DNA of 64,000 nt. It comes from a virus (Duplodnaviria; Caudoviricetes). Positions 34,205 through 39,890 of the stretch are shown piece by piece (the first letter of the stretch is position 1; every line of letters begins with the position of its first letter). The notes under the pieces were generated by a model, which made no database searches, was not told where the DNA came from, and saw only the letters and a program-made list of their open reading frames with translations. The position numbers and the translations under genes are program-made. Where the stretch lies: positions 96,001 through 160,000 of the IMG/VR virus record IMGVR_UViG_3300049141_000098. One strand, 5' to 3'.

Positions 34205-34423
34205 GTGAAGTTCTCGAAGAAGGTCGCCCTCGGGGTTGCTCTGGCGGCCGGTGCCGCGTGGGCTGTGTATCGAGCGAAGGTTCGCGCTGATCAGGCCTGG
34301 TTCCGGACGCCGGAGTGGCAGGCCGGTGAGCGCGAGGCCGACCAGGAGCTGAAGGACGGCAAGGGTGTGATCTTCGACAGTCCGGAGGACATGTTCACGG
34401 TGGTGGATCGTGCCGACATTTGA
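34205..34423 (+). CDS. antitoxin-like protein with hydrophobic N-terminus
   Basis: DQAWFRTPEWQAGEREADQELKDG...FDSPEDM typical of actinobacterial antitoxin C-termini; overlaps the toxin gene. Confidence 0.65.
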   Translation: MKFSKKVALGVALAAGAAWAVYRAKVRADQAWFRTPEWQAGEREADQELKDGKGVIFDSPEDMFTVVDRADI

Positions 34424-34739
34424 GCAGACTCCGCGCTTCCTTAAGGACCTCAAGCGTCTGGATTCGCAGAGTCTGGAACGCTTCAAGCAGGTTGTTCTGG
34501 AGCAGTTCGTGCCGGACGTCGATGCCGGAACCTTCCGCAAGTCGCTGCGAGTGAAGCAGATGCAGGGCACCCCGAAGGGGCAGGTCGTCTACGAGATGAC
34601 GTGGGCCCACGACGGCCGGGCCACCTTCCAGTATGGCGAGGAGATCAAGGACGGCGTTCCGCATGTCATCTGGCGTCGCGTCGGCACCCACAGCGCGCTC
34701 AACATCGTGCCGGGCAGGATGAGCAAGTTCAGCGGTTGA
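34410..34739 (+). CDS. RelE/ParE-like toxin
   Basis: PTFEQTPRFLKDLKRL...LRVKQMQG...YEMTWAHDGRATFQY...VIWRRVGTHS. Confidence 0.8.
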   Translation: MPTFEQTPRFLKDLKRLDSQSLERFKQVVLEQFVPDVDAGTFRKSLRVKQMQGTPKGQVVYEMTWAHDGRATFQYGEEIKDGVPHVIWRRVGTHSALNIVPGRMSKFSG

Positions 34740-34853
34740 TCTGGTGTCCTGCGGAACGTGCGCCGCCGAGCATGAGGACGGGCGACGGTTTCACTGGAAT
34801 TTCATTCCTCAAAACTGCTACAGAACAGCAAAGTTCTGCGCTAGAGTTGAAGA

Positions 34854-34893
34854 GTCAGCCGATGAACCGAGGTTGAGCGGCGAGTCGGCTGAC
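34854..34893 (+). other. leader hairpin upstream of the tRNA array
   Basis: GTCAGCCGA / TCGGCTGAC; TAGAGT -10-like hexamer at 34842-34847. Confidence 0.5.
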
Positions 34894-34895
34894 GT

Positions 34896-34971
34896 AGGGG
34901 TGTAGCTCAGTTGGCCAGAGCGCCGGTCTCCAAAACCGGGTCTGTCGCGAGTTCGAATCTCGCCTCCCCTG
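34896..34971 (+). tRNA. tRNA-Trp (CCA)
   Basis: anticodon arm CCGGT CTCCAAA ACCGG; T-loop TTCGAAT; CCA end not encoded. Confidence 0.9.
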
Positions 34972-35011
34972 CTGATCCCCGGGGTGCCACCCCCGTCTCC
35001 CCGGGGATCGC

Positions 35012-35085
35012 CGGGATGTAGCGCAGCTTGGTAGCGCGTCCGCTTTGGGAGCGGAAGGCCGTGGGTTCAAATCCCGCCATCCCGA
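35012..35085 (+). tRNA. tRNA-Pro (TGG)
   Basis: CGGGATG/CATCCCG acceptor; TCCGC TTTGGGA GCGGA. Confidence 0.92.
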
Positions 35086-35087
35086 CT

Positions 35088-35218
35088 GGCGATCAGTAAG
35101 ATCTGGTTGCTCGGCACCGTGCACGGCCCGCTAGCGCGGCTCATGTCCCGACATACTGGAAAGAGCGACAGCGCGGGGCAAGCCGTGAAGAGTGTGCGAA
35201 CACGGCGCACCTCTCGCC
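35088..35218 (+). ncRNA. candidate multi-branched structured RNA
   Basis: GGCGA/TCGCC closing stem; GTTGCTC/GAGCGAC enclosing three small hairpins; further hairpins at 35172-35187 and 35189-35214. Confidence 0.4.
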
Positions 35219-35232
35219 CACAACTGAACAGC

Positions 35233-35359
35233 TCTTCCGTAGTCCAGCGGCCTAAGACAGTGCGGTCGTGGGGATCGAGACCCCAGAGGTTAAAACCTCG
35301 AACCGCTTCGGCGGAATGGCCCCGACGCACTAACGCGGGTTCAAATCCCGTCGGAAGAG
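35233..35359 (+). ncRNA. tRNA-like RNA with a 61-nt three-hairpin region in place of the anticodon loop
   Basis: TCTTCCG/CGGAAGA acceptor, GTC-CAGCGGCCTAA-GAC D arm, GTGCG/CGCAC anticodon stem, GCGGG-TTCAAAT-CCCGT T arm. Confidence 0.75.
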
Positions 35360-35367
35360 AATCACAT

Positions 35368-35447
35368 GAGGTCAGTGACGGAATTGGTAGACGTTGGTGA
35401 GGGTGCACGCCAAGCCCCTCGTGCGGGTTCGAACCCCGCCTGATCTC
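35368..35447 (+). ncRNA. tRNA-like RNA with a Leu-type D arm and non-canonical anticodon region
   Basis: GAGGTCAG/CTGATCTC, ACG-GAATTGGTAGA-CGT, GCGGG-TTCGAAC-CCCGC; no U33-containing 7-nt loop on a standard 5-bp stem. Confidence 0.7.
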
Positions 35448-35450
35448 CTG

Positions 35451-35508
35451 AACCCCGAGGACTCTGTCCTCTTTCTCAGGGCGTCGTCCAAGGGAGTTCT
35501 CGGGGTTT
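35451..35508 (+). terminator. long hairpin
   Basis: AACCCCGAGGACTC ... GAGTTCTCGGGGTT. Confidence 0.5.
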
Positions 35509-35533
35509 TCACATACAGCGAAAGGGGTGGGGT

Positions 35534-35872
35534 ATGGGTGCAGGTCACAACCTTCTGCACATCACGGTGGACAAAGAGGCAGTGCACGAGCGCTTCCCCG
35601 ATCTCGATGCCCGGATCGCCGACCACATCAAGCAGTGGCGCGACTCGGTCGAGCCGGGCACTACGGTCACCATCAACAAGATGATGAACTGCTCCAGCAC
35701 CTGTGGCTGCTCGGCCGACGGCCAGTCGACCAAGTGCACGGGCGCGGGGCACGGCATGCCAGCCGAGATCGTGTTGGGCTTGGTCTTCCCGCCCGATGGA
35801 GGCCCGTGCTCGATCGAGGGTGTGAAGGGCATCGCAGACACCACGCCGAAGCAGATCCAGCGCACCGCGTAA
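35534..35872 (+). CDS. hypothetical Cys-containing protein
   Basis: SD GAAAGGGG; GC3 bias. Confidence 0.65.
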   Translation: MGAGHNLLHITVDKEAVHERFPDLDARIADHIKQWRDSVEPGTTVTINKMMNCSSTCGCSADGQSTKCTGAGHGMPAEIVLGLVFPPDGGPCSIEGVKGIADTTPKQIQRTA

Positions 35873-35960
35873 CGAACGGGGATGCCCACGTGGTAGCCCT
35901 GTCATGAGAGTGATCCGTCCGCGATTTCGAGGCAGAGGGCATTCGAATCAAGGAGGGATC

Positions 35961-36128
35961 ATGACGGAGAACAAGCTGCGCCGTACGTGTTCGCACTGCG
36001 GAGTGGTCGGTGAAGTGGGCGTCGACATCTTCTGGATTACGGACCCCTACATTGAGGAGATTGAAGGCGAGGTCGTCAAGCAGTGACTTCACGAGCATTG
36101 TGCAGATGAAATCGCTGACGAGATCTAA
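35961..36128 (+). pseudogene. small Zn-finger-like gene interrupted by an in-frame TGA (pseudogene or readthrough)
   Basis: MTENKLRRTCSHCG...DPYIEEIEGEVVKQ*LHEHCADEIADEI; TGA 36084-36086; SD AAGGAGGG. Confidence 0.6.
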
Positions 36129-36170
36129 AACTCTCCACCGGGAAGGCCGCCCCGGAACATTAGCGGCCAT

Positions 36171-36243
36171 ACCCCCGTAGCTCAGCGGATAGAGCAGACG
36201 CCTTCTAAGCGTCGGGTCGCAGGTTCAAATCCTGTCGGGGGTG
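36171..36243 (+). tRNA. tRNA-Arg (TCT)
   Basis: ACCCCCG/CGGGGGT; GACGC CTTCTAA GCGTC. Confidence 0.93.
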
Positions 36244-36396
36244 CGACGGTGCACGGCTCGGACTCATACTCCGCCCCGTGTATGGAGGATCAGGTGGCGG
36301 TGGGAGGTCAGCCACTACCCCAGGATCCCCTGACCCCTGGAGGCGAGTGACCTCTCCCTCCGGGGGTTCCGGTAGAACGGAAGGAGAGGAGGAAGC

Positions 36397-36777
36397 GTGG
36401 GGTGCTCTCACAGGAGTGAGGGTTTGAACTTCACTCACCGCGACGTCCCCGAAGCCGTTGCCTACGCCAAGGGGAAGTACTACACGGACGGCGTGAAGCG
36501 ATTCTTGTACTACTGCGCCAGCTTGGAATGCTACGGCCGGGATGACAATATCCATGTCGGCAGGGGCAAGCTCAGCGGTAAACTGAATCGAAGGTTGAAC
36601 GTCGACTTGGTCAACTTCTACACGCACTGGGAAACGTTCGGCACAGGGGGAAAGAAGAGGGATCTCGTGGGACTCCAGACGCGCAGGCGTCGAGCACGAG
36701 TCCTCAAGCAGCTTCCCTATCTGAGGTGGGAAGATGACGGAGGGCCGTCGAGGATAGGGCCGAAACACAGCCCGTAG
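36397..36777 (+). CDS. hypothetical basic protein
   Basis: SD GGAGGAAG; ORF inside the tRNA array. Confidence 0.55.
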   Translation: MGCSHRSEGLNFTHRDVPEAVAYAKGKYYTDGVKRFLYYCASLECYGRDDNIHVGRGKLSGKLNRRLNVDLVNFYTHWETFGTGGKKRDLVGLQTRRRRARVLKQLPYLRWEDDGGPSRIGPKHSP

Positions 36778-36793
36778 GAAAACTCAATAGCGA

Positions 36794-36866
36794 GCATCCG
36801 TAGCTCAGTTGGTAGAGCGCCTGACTCTTAATCAGGCTGTCGCTGGTTCGAGACCAGCCGGATGCA
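36794..36866 (+). tRNA. tRNA-Lys (CTT)
   Basis: GCATCCG/CGGATGC; CCTGA CTCTTAA TCAGG. Confidence 0.93.
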
Positions 36867-36973
36867 CGGGGTGGTATGCACTGCGGCAGACTTCCCCTGC
36901 AAAAGACAAGATCCGCAATTCCGGTGAGCATCCGGGTTACACCTGCTCAGGGCTGGCATCCCTAACTGCCGTG

Positions 36974-37047
36974 GGGCCTGTAGCTCAGACAGTCAGAGCG
37001 CCGGAGTGAAATCCCGGAGGTCGGTGGTGCGAAACCATCCGGGCCCA
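36974..37047 (+). tRNA. tRNA-Phe (GAA), degenerate / possible pseudo-tRNA
   Basis: GGGCCTG/CGGGCCC; loop GTGAAAT; D-loop lacks GG and T-loop is TGCGAAA. Confidence 0.6.
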
Positions 37048-37050
37048 CAA

Positions 37051-37138
37051 GTCGGACGACGAGCCGCTAACGCTGATCTACTGTGACGGGTGGATCGCAG
37101 GCGAAGGCGGCCCCTGCGGGGAAGCGCCGTCGTCCGGC
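37051..37138 (+). ncRNA. candidate four-way-junction structured RNA
   Basis: 11-bp closing stem GTCGGACGACG/CGTCGTCCGGC with arms AGC/GCT, GATCTAC/GTGGATC, GCAGG/CCTGC. Confidence 0.5.
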
Positions 37139-37159
37139 TGTCAACAATTCCATATTCAA

Positions 37160-37231
37160 TCCCCGGTAGTTCAACTGGCAGAACACCGGCCTCTGGAGTC
37201 GGGAATCCTGGTTCAAATCCAGGCTGGGGAG
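37160..37231 (+). tRNA. tRNA-Gln (CTG)
   Basis: TCCCCGG/CTGGGGA; CCGGC CTCTGGA GTCGG. Confidence 0.92.
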
Positions 37232-37233
37232 CG

Positions 37234-37299
37234 GCCGGTAGCTCAGGTTCGAATCCTGGATCAGACTGCGGTCTGAGTAGTGTAGGGAAGCACGCCAGC
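37234..37299 (+). ncRNA. circularly permuted tRNA-like module 1 (no anticodon loop)
   Basis: GCCGG-TAGC-[TCAGG TTCGAAT CCTGG]-ATCAGAC TGCG GTCTGAG-TA-[GTG TAGGGAAG CAC]-G-CCAGC. Confidence 0.75.
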
Positions 37300-37301
37300 A
37301 A

Positions 37302-37369
37302 ATGGGAGGTCTGGGTTCGAGCCCCAGTCGCGGCTTCGGTCGTGATGGTGTAATTGGCAGCACGCTCAT
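37302..37369 (+). ncRNA. circularly permuted tRNA-like module 2 (no anticodon loop)
   Basis: ATGGG-AGGT-[CTGGG TTCGAGC CCCAG]-TCGCGGC TTCG GTCGTGA-TG-[GTG TAATTGGCAG CAC]-G-CTCAT. Confidence 0.8.
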
Positions 37370-37372
37370 CAA

Positions 37373-37445
37373 TCCTCGATAGCTCAATTGGCAGAGTACG
37401 GCACTGTTAATGCTGGGGTTACTGGTTCGAGTCCAGTTCGGGGAG
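37373..37445 (+). tRNA. tRNA-Asn (GTT)
   Basis: TCCTCGA/TCGGGGA; CGGCA CTGTTAA TGCTG. Confidence 0.92.
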
Positions 37446-37540
37446 CGAGGGAGCCTTCAGGCTCACCAGGGTCAAGCGGGCCCCTGACCGTTCGAGTCGG
37501 CAGAAAAGCCCGCCCAGAACCCTTCGGAAAGGGAACGAGA

Positions 37541-37735
37541 ATGGGTGAAAGGCTTGACCGGATCAAGCGGGTTATCAACCCGCCAGTCACTGCCGAGTGG
37601 ATCGACACGGTGGTAACGCAGCGCAGCGAACAGGCCGACGAGATCGAAGAATCGAAGGGCCCGAAGGCGGCGCAGCGGCATCGCGAGAAGACCGGCAGGA
37701 TGGTAGGGAAGATGTTGCGAAGAGGCGTCATCTGA
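37541..37735 (+). CDS. small hypothetical protein
   Basis: SD GGAAAGGG; 64 aa. Confidence 0.6.
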   Translation: MGERLDRIKRVINPPVTAEWIDTVVTQRSEQADEIEESKGPKAAQRHREKTGRMVGKMLRRGVI

Positions 37736-37742
37736 CCGACCC

Positions 37743-37860
37743 GGGCGGGTGCCAGAGCGGCCTATTGGACCGGACGCAATCCGGTTGATCCGTCTGAGCC
37801 TCGGCGTACGGCAACGAGGCTCGTCAGCGGTGATCGTGGGTTCAAATCCCACCCCGTCCA
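37743..37860 (+). ncRNA. tRNA-like RNA with a 5-nt anticodon loop and 51-nt variable arm
   Basis: GGGCGGG/CCCGTCC, CCA-GAGCGGCCTAT-TGG, CCGGA CGCAA TCCGG, long arm 37785-37835, GTGGG TTCAAAT CCCAC. Confidence 0.75.
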
Positions 37861-37995
37861 CAACGCTTGCGCCCAGGCGGAGCGATACAGCAGAGCAACA
37901 CGTGCTCGCCGTGTACGACTTGACGCATCTAGGGGACCCTCCTCTCCACTCTGCGAGAGGGTGGGGCCGACGGAAGCTGTGAACCTTCGGAAGGG

Positions 37996-38277
37996 ATGAA
38001 GAGGATGGACGCAGGGAGCCTGGACCGGCACATCACCGGGAACTGGGGAGAGGACTCTGTCGCACCGGAGTTCGTCGCAGCGCGAGAGCTGGGCGACTTC
38101 GAGGCGAGCGCCGAGGTCGTCATCGACGCCGCGCCGCAGACCGACGAGAAGTGCATCCCCGTGACGGTGGAGAAGGTGTCGATCACCTCCGGCATGGTGT
38201 ACGTGACGACGAAGGAGCTGGCCTGGCCCCTCGTCATCCCGGAGGATGACACCGTCTGGTTCGCCGACGAGAACTGA
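37996..38277 (+). CDS. hypothetical protein
   Basis: GC3 bias, SD GGAAGGG. Confidence 0.65.
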   Translation: MKRMDAGSLDRHITGNWGEDSVAPEFVAARELGDFEASAEVVIDAAPQTDEKCIPVTVEKVSITSGMVYVTTKELAWPLVIPEDDTVWFADEN

Positions 38278-38284
38278 TTCACCC

Positions 38285-38500
38285 GTGACTCACCTCAGTG
38301 AGGCCCTGGAGCGGCACCTCGCATCGACTCCGCGCCTTGCGGACGACCTGCCCGAACTGGTCGGGTCGCAAGAGCTGGCTGATGCCATGCTGCGCGGTCG
38401 GCATCAGGCGAATTTGTACGAGGCGACCTTGTTGGCGGCGTACTGCAAGACGTCGGTGAAGGATTTCTTCGAGCTGGACAGCACCAAGAAGGGAAACTGA
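38285..38500 (+). CDS. small XRE-like hypothetical protein
   Basis: ...ANLYEATLLAAYCKTSVKDFF resembles an XRE C-terminal helix. Confidence 0.45.
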   Translation: MTHLSEALERHLASTPRLADDLPELVGSQELADAMLRGRHQANLYEATLLAAYCKTSVKDFFELDSTKKGN

Positions 38501-39623: not shown

Positions 39624-39683
39624 TTGGCGTATTACCAGGTAGATTCTCCTACCAGTAACACTGCGAACGTTCGGAGAACAGAC

Positions 39684-39890
39684 ATGCCTTTGGGCACCGT
39701 GAAGTGGTTCAACGCCGAAAAGGGCTACGGCTTCATCCAGCAGGACGACGGCGGTGCCGACGTCTTCGTGCACTACAGCGCCATCCAGATGGACGGATAC
39801 CGCGCCCTCGAAGAGGGACAGCGCGTCTCCTTCGAGACGCAGCGTGGACGGAAGGGCATCGAGGCACAGGGTGTGACCCCCGCGTCGTGA
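39684..39890 (+). CDS. cspA: cold-shock domain RNA chaperone
   Basis: [15 protein letters not shown]...[25 protein letters not shown] (RNP1/RNP2). Confidence 0.97.

Follow-up and report, generated by a model that had tools for sequence, protein, structure and literature searches.

The tRNA array of a large Caudoviricetes phage contains five RNA elements, termed e1 to e5 here, that keep the body of a tRNA and have no usable anticodon. The array lies in the window, by which we mean the whole 64,000-nt stretch of DNA that was analyzed (bases 96001-160000 of the 259,646-bp virus record IMGVR_UViG_3300049141_000098, which has terminal repeats and 63.6% G+C); positions refer to the window unless they are given as genome positions. 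Taken together, our analyses suggest, with a probability that we put at roughly 0.6, that the five are individual genes, accessory within the array and maintained by selection, whose tRNA-shaped RNAs do not decode and would mimic the tRNA body for proteins. The tRNA arrays of phages are commonly interpreted either as codon supplements or as a means of replacing tRNAs that host defense systems have cut. The elements suggest that phages also put the tRNA scaffold to a second use, in which the tRNA shape is kept, decoding is lost, and the folds are under purifying selection.

A preliminary description of this DNA had proposed five anticodon-less elements, and all five were found within 1 nt of where it had placed them:

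35233-35359, + strand: e1, a tRNA body with the anticodon loop swapped for a three-hairpin domain of ~61 nt
35369-35448, + strand: e2, a Leu-like tRNA body with the D-loop GAAUUGGUAGA, called tRNA-???(ggtg) by ARAGORN
37234-37299, + strand: e3, a circularly permuted tRNA-like module whose minimum free energy (MFE) structure is the permuted cloverleaf
37302-37369, + strand: e4, a second permuted module, 2 nt after e3
37743-37860, + strand: e5, a class II tRNA-like RNA with a Ser-type D-arm

The elements are of three kinds, namely the permuted pair e3+e4 with closed acceptors, the class II body e5, and the remodelled bodies e1 and e2. Each has a perfect 5-bp T-stem and a TTCRANN loop, which in e1, e2, and e5 are joined by an open acceptor stem of 7 bp, U8, and a D-arm that contains GG. 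As that description had claimed, none has a 7-nt anticodon loop with U33. At the site of this loop we found a 61-nt insert in e1, an 8- or 7-nt loop with G33 in e2, 2-3-nt linkers in e3 and e4, and a 5-nt loop in e5. The elements retain the D-loop/T-loop elbow and the acceptor/T helix, and the anticodon loop is abolished in four different ways. The Rfam tRNA model (RF00005, gathering score 29 bits) gave no match at E ≤ 1 for any of the five, and only e2 was reported by ARAGORN, as a 'tRNA-???' with a 4-base anticodon. The combination of a perfect 5-bp T-stem and a TTCRANN loop occurs 12 times in the 3-kb array and three times in a second tRNA/Y-RNA cluster of the 260-kb genome; about 11 more are spread over both strands of the remaining ~255 kb.

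The body of e1 consists of a 7-bp acceptor starting from U1-A72, a class II-type D-arm, a 5-bp anticodon stem, a 4-nt variable loop, the T-arm, and a discriminator G, and one of the three hairpins of its insert is capped by UUCG. It drew no call from ARAGORN or Rfam. The 8-nt loop of e2 lacks U33, and its AGGG could pair with CCCU in the 10-nt variable region as a candidate pseudoknot. No similarity was found to the Thr and Met tRNAs of related phages, which we considered as ancestors of e1 and e2.

In e3, a closing stem is followed by a 4-nt variable segment, the T-arm, an acceptor hairpin of seven positions capped by UGCG, the dinucleotide UA, the D-arm (GUGU-AGGGAA-GCAC), a G, and the other strand of the closing stem. 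The 7-bp acceptor hairpin of e4 is capped by UUCG, and its D-arm is GUGU-AAUUGGCA-GCAC. Both pair only in the circularly permuted register, with folds ~0.6-1.7 kcal/mol from the MFE. In this layout all junction lengths are tRNA-like and the pairs are reported as canonical. The permuted tRNA genes of red algae differ, in that their 3′ half precedes their 5′ half and the anticodon loop is restored after processing. In e3 and e4 the 2-3-nt linkers join the termini without any anticodon-loop sequence, and a stable tetraloop caps the acceptor.

The e5 RNA has an anticodon stem closed by a 5-nt YGYAA loop, a T-arm, a 7-bp acceptor, and a variable arm of ~50 nt with a 9-bp inner helix and conserved internal and apical loops (fold z = -3.07). 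It resembles class II tRNA-Ser in its 7-bp acceptor, 3-bp D-stem, 11-nt D-loop (GAGCGGCYUAU), long paired variable arm, and standard T-arm, whereas tRNA-Ser has a variable arm of 16-21 nt, and e5 also departs from it in the 5-nt loop and the lack of G73. Neither ARAGORN nor the Rfam tRNA model recognized e5. Like transfer-messenger RNA (tmRNA; RF00023), it mimics the acceptor and T-arm without a decoding anticodon, and Rfam aligns it end-to-end to the two ends of that model; unlike tmRNA, it has a normal D-arm, and the G3:U70 alanine identity is not conserved. We rejected e5 as a tmRNA, as it scores 23.3 bits against a gathering score of 47 and has no tag ORF (open reading frame), no pseudoknots, and no ARAGORN tmRNA call. 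An alanine identity (G3:U70, A73) was likewise dropped, since G3:U70 is present in one of four homologues and is G-C in the other three.

Conservation and distribution of the elements

A 93-aa ORF just downstream of e5 has 33 homologues, and the contigs that carry them supplied syntenic arrays. The elements are distributed as follows:

Window: e1, e2, e3, e4, e5
L025: e2, a truncated e4, e5
L027: e3+e4
L028: e3+e4, e5, and another odd tRNA-like element of 87 nt
L032: e1+e2 and an odd tRNA-like element of 89 nt
L035: e5 alone; an ORF occupies the Gln-Asn gap

Absence of an element is argued only from assembled loci and contig joints, not from regions that reads leave uncovered (e1 and Phe-Gln-e3, in runs that contain part of the stretch). 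We found e3 and e4 always together, and e1 and e2 together in two of three cases. The preliminary description had treated the elements as one co-functional set. This did not hold, as relatives carry differing subsets (e5; e3+e4; e1+e2; e2+e5), and because the elements come and go independently among relatives, a single co-functional system is not established. The two odd elements (L028:4873-4959, 87 nt, Gly-ccc in ARAGORN; L032:5019-5107, 89 nt, Arg-ccg) are over-long 'tRNAs' with a hairpin inserted in the anticodon region, which is capped by GCAA in the L028 element.

The homologous copies preserve the remodelled folds. The L032 copy of e1 shows 82% identity, both copies retain all 32 pairs, and the alignment (n = 2) has 100% of its cells paired with two double compensatory changes. 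For e2, the homologues are 98% (L025) and 86% (L032) identical, the latter with a 7-nt loop; 100% of cells are paired (n = 3), two double changes both fall in the acceptor, and the AGGG and CCCU segments are invariant across copies while adjacent positions change. Copies of e3 are 97% (L027) and 88% (L028) identical. In the e3+e4 alignment (n = 3), 95.2% of cells are paired, compared with 33-42% when the partners are slid, and there are three double compensatory changes in e4, one each in the closing stem, the T-stem, and the acceptor. Acceptor changes in e3 between relatives are from A-U to G.U, and the sole mismatch of e3+e4 in the window, a C.A in the closing stem of e3, is U-A in both relatives. 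The e5 alignment (n = 4: window, L025, L035, L028) has 98.3% of cells paired and nine pairs with double changes, which involve six of the nine pairs of the variable-arm helix; 0/500 shuffles reach the observed values. The loop is 5 nt long in 4/4 homologues (CGCAA, UGCAA, or CGUAA), and model R2, made for e5, scores the four at 120-145 bits.

Overall, 95-100% of cells are paired across relatives, with 2-9 double compensatory changes per element. The state of the folds in homologues had been named beforehand as the test of the earlier claim that the elements are not decay products, and assembly errors had also been considered. Since relatives keep the helices through compensatory changes, and since homologues in other contigs give independent support, both explanations are disfavored, and this comparison indicates that the elements are selected RNAs rather than decaying genes or assembly errors. 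L025 provides a natural control, in that a deletion removed Lys-Phe-Gln-e3 and the T-arm of e4, and the D-stem of the leftover e4 is no longer fully paired. The same deletion is visible as a contig joint (36743/37333) in two sequencing runs.

Searches beyond these loci returned few copies. The e1 model, R3, found only the window and L032 copies, and 12 matches to the e1 pattern in IMG/VR were set aside as chance because R3 rejects them. The e2 pattern had no match in IMG/VR, and for the core patterns of e3/e4 and e5 the L028 contig was the only match there. Against 401 Streptomyces genomes, the 140-nt e3+e4 stretch gave just two weak partial matches.

The closest cultured relatives of the phage are the 185-200-kb Streptomyces phages Kela, JustBecause, Satis, Kradal, and Frankenweenie, and the e5 model matched unannotated RNAs in three of them:

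Kela MT310898.1, 88203-88320 (= L083:1501-1618), - strand: 118-nt RNA
Satis, L084:1501-1618, - strand: RNA of ~118 nt
Frankenweenie, L082:1501-1619, - strand: RNA of ~118 nt

These RNAs have a 7-bp acceptor, a class II D-arm, an extended 'anticodon' arm with a small terminal hairpin, a long variable hairpin, and a T-arm, and their outer architecture is that of e5. Across the three phages the fold is 99.1% paired with nine double compensatory changes, values that 0/500 shuffles reach. They are flanked by tRNA-Ile and by a Y RNA, an RNA ligase (PF09414), and Ro-like genes, and the Kela copy lies partly under coding sequence (CDS) 140, a 'hypothetical protein'. Beside the 118-nt RNA is an odd tRNA-like element of ~85 nt (L083:1721-1805, L082:1704-1788, and L084:~1704-1772, all on the - strand) in which a small hairpin (CUGG-N6-CCAG) replaces the anticodon loop; the ARAGORN call is 'tRNA-Pyl(cta)' for Kela and 'tRNA-???' for Frankenweenie. 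Judging from the 118-nt and ~85-nt RNAs, tRNA bodies without an anticodon recur in this phage lineage, also among its cultured members. Kela, Satis, and Frankenweenie infect laboratory strains of Streptomyces, and the question of what such RNAs do is therefore directly testable in them. Satis also has an unannotated 150-nt tRNA-like element after CDS 204 (L002:4851-5000), with an acceptor and T-arm around an extra T-arm-like hairpin and other stems. It occupies the slot of e5, which holds tRNA-Arg in Kela and Frankenweenie, and is not homologous to e5. There is a lesson here for annotation, as such RNAs in public records are missed, lie under small 'hypothetical' ORFs, or are mislabelled as tRNA-Asn or tRNA-Thr.

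Permuted modules and Rsr-linked Y RNAs

The phage encodes a 535-aa TROVE and vWA protein (Rsr/Ro60; ORF at genome 80411-82018). Directly upstream of rsr are three small handle-bearing Y RNAs, two of which contain permuted tRNA-like modules, and the pairing of Rsr with Y RNAs was found in all four cultured relatives. The three RNAs have in common the boxes GGUGUG-N9-GUUACUUC and UGGUUAACC, both of which are absent throughout the tRNA array. One of them, Y RNA b, shares with e3 and e4 the unusual D-arm GUGU..GCAC-G-C. A strict scan of the whole genome for the permuted layout returned only e3, e4, and one Rsr-linked Y RNA.

A covariance model built from the Rsr-linked Y-RNA modules only (R1) had e4 as its top non-training match, with 38.5 bits (E 3e-11) for the window copy, 42.8 bits for L028, and 32.5 bits for L027, to be read against scores of 20-35 bits for tRNA-tRNA junctions, which limit the specificity of R1. 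Under the same model, e3 scored 28.9 bits in L028 only, and the e3 of the window was not reported. In addition, e4 is 76% identical over 67 nt to a permuted module beside a 'Ro-like' gene of Faith1-type mycobacteriophages. That module (L020:1202-1270 in Faith1, with sisters Gardann and Zakai) lies downstream of a gene for a DUF2828, DUF7788, and vWA protein annotated as 'RNA-binding' or 'Ro-like'. Part of it bears a tRNA-Asn or tRNA-Thr label in some records, at a site where neither ARAGORN nor Rfam detects a tRNA. We do not take Faith1 gp55 as an Rsr, as it has no TROVE match and BLASTP does not align it to the phage Rsr; the 'Ro-like' label comes from the Zakai annotation.

The preliminary description had compared the elements with bacterial YrlA RNAs, and for e3 and e4 the comparison is apt, as the permuted module is present. 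Like YrlA (RF02553; PMC4201824), they have a T-arm, an acceptor-like stem closed by a loop, U8, a D-arm, and a closing stem, and as in Mycobacterium smegmatis YrlA the acceptor stem spans seven positions. Unlike YrlA, they have no Ro handle, lie inside a tRNA array as a head-to-tail pair 2 nt apart, and remain below Rfam thresholds. Their closing stems are only 5 bp, with no long Ro-binding terminal stem. The Rfam YrlA model (gathering score 69 bits) did not match e3 or e4, and the Rsr-linked RNA itself reaches only 32 bits. Judged by layout, D-arm, and R1 scores, e3 and e4 are related to the tRNA-like module found in the Rsr-linked Y RNAs of this phage, and they are YrlA module-like rather than YrlA as defined.

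YrlA modules are substrates of TruB and DusA, and the M. smegmatis YrlA, which has a 7-bp 'acceptor', is cleaved by RNase P and acquires CCA in vivo (PMC4201824). In e3 and e4 the tRNA-like module of Y RNAs is separated from Ro binding, apparently the first such case found. The pair could help in finding the long-sought partner of the module, which Chen et al. 2014 (PMC4201824) left open.

Proposed function and competing explanations

In the mechanism we propose, host tRNA-processing enzymes would release the elements from the array transcript, and the elements would then bind or occupy proteins that recognize the tRNA body and not the anticodon, or serve them as harmless substrates. The e3+e4 pair may engage the partner of the Y-RNA tRNA-like module without being tethered to Rsr, and because their acceptor hairpins span seven positions, RNase P might nick e3 and e4 as it does M. 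smegmatis YrlA. The open acceptor ends of e1, e2, and e5 could receive CCA. With its Ser-type body and long variable arm, e5 would have the form that acceptor-end toxins such as MenT3/AbiEii recognize. MenT3 depends on the acceptor/T helix and the long variable arm of tRNA-Ser, and a shortened anticodon stem matters little to it (PMC11162799). A domain of the AbiEii/MenT family was above cut-off in 62/101 sampled Streptomyces genomes, which we take as context and not as a sign that these proteins interact with the elements.

Phage tRNAs with altered anticodon loops escape tRNA-targeting defenses (van den Berg et al. 2023, PMC10264068; Azam et al. 2024, PMC11555353). Like those tRNAs, the elements reside in tRNA arrays of actinobacteriophages and their changes center on the anticodon arm; unlike them, they no longer decode, and because they have no usable anticodon they would be unable to replace depleted tRNAs. 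Full-text searches returned these decoding tRNAs and studies of phage Ro60 and Y RNAs (PMC4201824, PMC12135203), and no account of phage tRNA arrays with permuted modules that lack the handle or with tRNA bodies that lack an anticodon. The preliminary description had suggested a set of tRNA-shaped decoys. Its arguments that the elements are not decay products and that they resemble YrlA (e3 and e4) stood, and the single set and the RelE pair on which it also drew did not. Decoys for readers of the tRNA body or of the acceptor end plausibly fit the elements better than decoys for anticodon nucleases, which are unlikely because the anticodon loop is what has been removed. Extending this further is tentative, and we hold the following to be a doubtful proposition: that large Streptomyces phages maintain a diversifying repertoire of tRNA-body mimics as decoys or sponges for effectors that read shape or acceptor, such as the MenT/AbiEii nucleotidyltransferases. 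The repertoire would then comprise permuted modules with closed acceptors, class II bodies whose anticodon stems are capped, and bodies into which domains are inserted, and it would be a class of RNA-based counter-defense distinct from replacement tRNAs and from Ro-bound Y RNAs.

Several results weigh against separate, maintained genes for tRNA-body mimics. The alignments hold only 2-4 sequences each, so that the covariation statistics are firm only for e5 and weak for the others, where shuffle controls reach the observed values in 21/500, 71/500, and 142/500 cases (e1, e2, and e3+e4, as listed). No neighboring gene travels consistently with the elements, and the elements do not co-occur as a set. 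Since the discriminator base of e5 varies (A/C), that RNA has no conserved identity set. The e3+e4 pair, at genome 133234-133369, is without a Ro handle and is 50 kb from rsr. Lastly, the phage genome showed no RNA ligase such as Rnl1, no RtcB, and no CCA-adding enzyme that would hint at a setting of tRNA damage.

We regard it as rather unlikely that e3+e4, and perhaps other elements, are extra parts of a phage Ro60/Rsr-Y RNA particle that bind Rsr or a partner nuclease and tune RNA surveillance or degradation. The layout shared with the Rsr-linked modules, the D-arm of Y RNA b, and the R1 match to e4 would suit such parts, as would the clustering of the 118-nt and ~85-nt RNAs with a Y RNA, the ligase, and a Ro-like gene in Kela, Satis, and Frankenweenie, and phage Ro60 is known to bind Y RNAs and host PNPase (PMC12135203). 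Against this stand the absence of the handle boxes from the array, the missing terminal stem, the distance to rsr, and the lack of an Rfam YrlA match. The elements could instead act in cis as punctuation, recruiting RNase P and RNase Z to cut the long array transcript, of which small ORFs are also part, or shielding its ends from exonucleases. Relatives that have no element at the same junctions (a 17-nt spacer in Satis, an ORF in L035) make this unlikely; moreover, e3+e4 are flanked by two canonical tRNAs that already offer cleavage sites, and the conserved loops of the e5 arm and the three-hairpin insert of e1 would be superfluous for punctuation. The position of elements at boundaries of tRNAs and ORFs (e5 after a 64-aa ORF, e1/e2 before a 112-aa ORF) does agree with such a role, as does the lack of a terminator-like site in 34300-38400, and nuclease protection by the tRNA fold was discussed by Chen et al. 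(PMC4201824).

Decoys aimed specifically at anticodon nucleases (PrrC, RloC, or VapC-type) are improbable. Phage tRNAs do counter tRNA-cleaving defenses (PMC10264068, PMC11555353), and relatives of the phage group carry the repair genes Rnl1, PNKP, and Hen1, but the site of recognition and cleavage, the anticodon loop, is missing or buried in the elements, no nuclease is linked to the locus, and the phage itself has neither Rnl1 nor RtcB. Functionless tRNA genes that are decaying or scrambled by recombination are very improbable, as double compensatory changes preserve all helices across relatives, stable UNCG and GNRA-like loops cap the hairpins, and the truncated L025 remnant of e4 shows decay, unlike the intact copies. 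What speaks for scrambling is that tRNA arrays recombine and that deletions in relatives cut through elements, as at the L025 joint; the start of e3 resembles a tRNA 5′ end fused to a T-loop, and Thr-Met junctions in Satis mimic the permuted module by chance (34.9 bits). We give almost no credence to unusual decoders, in which e2 would be a quadruplet (+1 frameshift) tRNA or e5 a Ser- or Ala-charged tRNA that reads Cys codons through GCA. The 4-base anticodon that ARAGORN gives e2, the GCA in the e5 loop, and G3:U70 with A73 in the window e5 prompt the idea; yet in e2 the loop never has U33 and its length differs between copies (8 nt in two, 7 nt in L032), and in e5 the 5-nt loop varies among CGCAA, UGCAA, and CGUAA, the other three copies have G-C in place of G3:U70, and the discriminator is not constant.

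Array layout and genomic setting

ARAGORN and Rfam RF00005 agree on seven canonical tRNAs in the array (Trp, Pro, Arg-tct, Lys, Phe, Gln, and Asn), with scores of 53-72 bits, those of Trp and Pro being 61 and 69.6 bits. The tRNAs and ORFs of the array are:

34896-34972, + strand: tRNA-Trp(cca), the start of the array
35012-35086, + strand: tRNA-Pro(tgg)
35534-35872, 35961-36086, and 36397-36777, + strand: small ORFs among the array genes, with no Pfam family
36171-36244, + strand: tRNA-Arg(tct)
36794-36867, + strand: tRNA-Lys(ctt)
36974-37048, + strand: tRNA-Phe(gaa), with an odd TGCGAAA T-loop
37160-37232, + strand: tRNA-Gln(ctg)
37373-37446, + strand: tRNA-Asn(gtt)
37541-37735, + strand: 64-aa ORF from the ORF list, in the interval from tRNA-Asn to e5

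The preliminary description had counted six canonical tRNAs and a degenerate Phe. The tRNAs are as it said, except that tRNA-Phe scores as a normal tRNA with a GAA anticodon; it has G at position 55 in the T-loop and an A.C mismatch closing the anticodon stem, and still reaches 53 bits. The D-loop of tRNA-Asn, AATTGGCA, is identical to that of e4. An Rfam YrlA match at 34923-35065 and a Plastid-ycf2 match were rejected as artefacts of neighboring or antisense tRNAs. Homologues exist for the 112-aa ORF within the array, and the 64-aa ORF is missing from some relatives, one contig joining 37516 straight to 37743.

The Gln-Asn junction is an insertion hot spot. Its spacer holds e3+e4 in the window, is 17 nt long in Satis, and contains a small ORF in L035, and in Kela (L001:4179-4251) it is an unrelated, very stable 73-nt hairpin (z = -3.1). 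On the 3′ side of tRNA-Asn, ~70 nt (37447-37520) are strongly conserved in L025, L027, L028, and L035 and contain a CCG-UUCGAGU-CGG hairpin with a T-loop-like loop, enclosed by a GCGGGC/GCCCGC stem. This segment may be a sixth structured element.

Scans for sigma-70 promoters and terminators were empty, with no terminator-like site in 34300-38400, and the layout is compatible with a single transcript for the whole array. A cold-shock-domain protein gene lies downstream:

39624-39890, + strand: cold-shock-domain protein gene (Pfam CSD, E 8.8e-30), syntenic in relatives

This gene, which we give as context only, bears out its earlier description as a cold-shock gene downstream of the array (CSD domain, E 9e-30). 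The RelE-type toxin-antitoxin pair that had been placed upstream was not borne out. The two overlapping small ORFs there (34205-34423 and 34410-34739; 72 and 109 aa) are kept in L025 and L027 and have no Pfam family at E ≤ 0.01; at E ≤ 5 the sole match is DUF6242 (E 0.21), with no RelE/ParE toxin or antitoxin domain.

In the cultured relatives, the syntenic tRNA array reads Trp-Pro-Thr-(Met)-Lys-Arg-Asp-Phe-Gln-Asn-(Arg). Relatives nearer than the cultured phages are contigs of ~250 kb from soil metagenomes and one Streptomyces isolate assembly. From these contigs and the cultured relatives, the host is therefore almost certainly Streptomyces. IMG/VR searches for close relatives by way of the 126-aa ORF within the array, a 624-aa upstream ORF, and the exact e4 pattern returned none, and the 624-aa ORF had no tblastn match among GenBank phages. 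One soil-metagenome sequencing run matches the stretch with zero differences and is possibly its source sample; no RNA run is listed among those that contain the stretch. Other contexts of the 93-aa ORF family (L029, L030, L033, and L034) have a T4-type RNA ligase 1, a PNKP-like kinase/phosphatase, and a Hen1 methyltransferase within a few kb, and these are tRNA repair genes.

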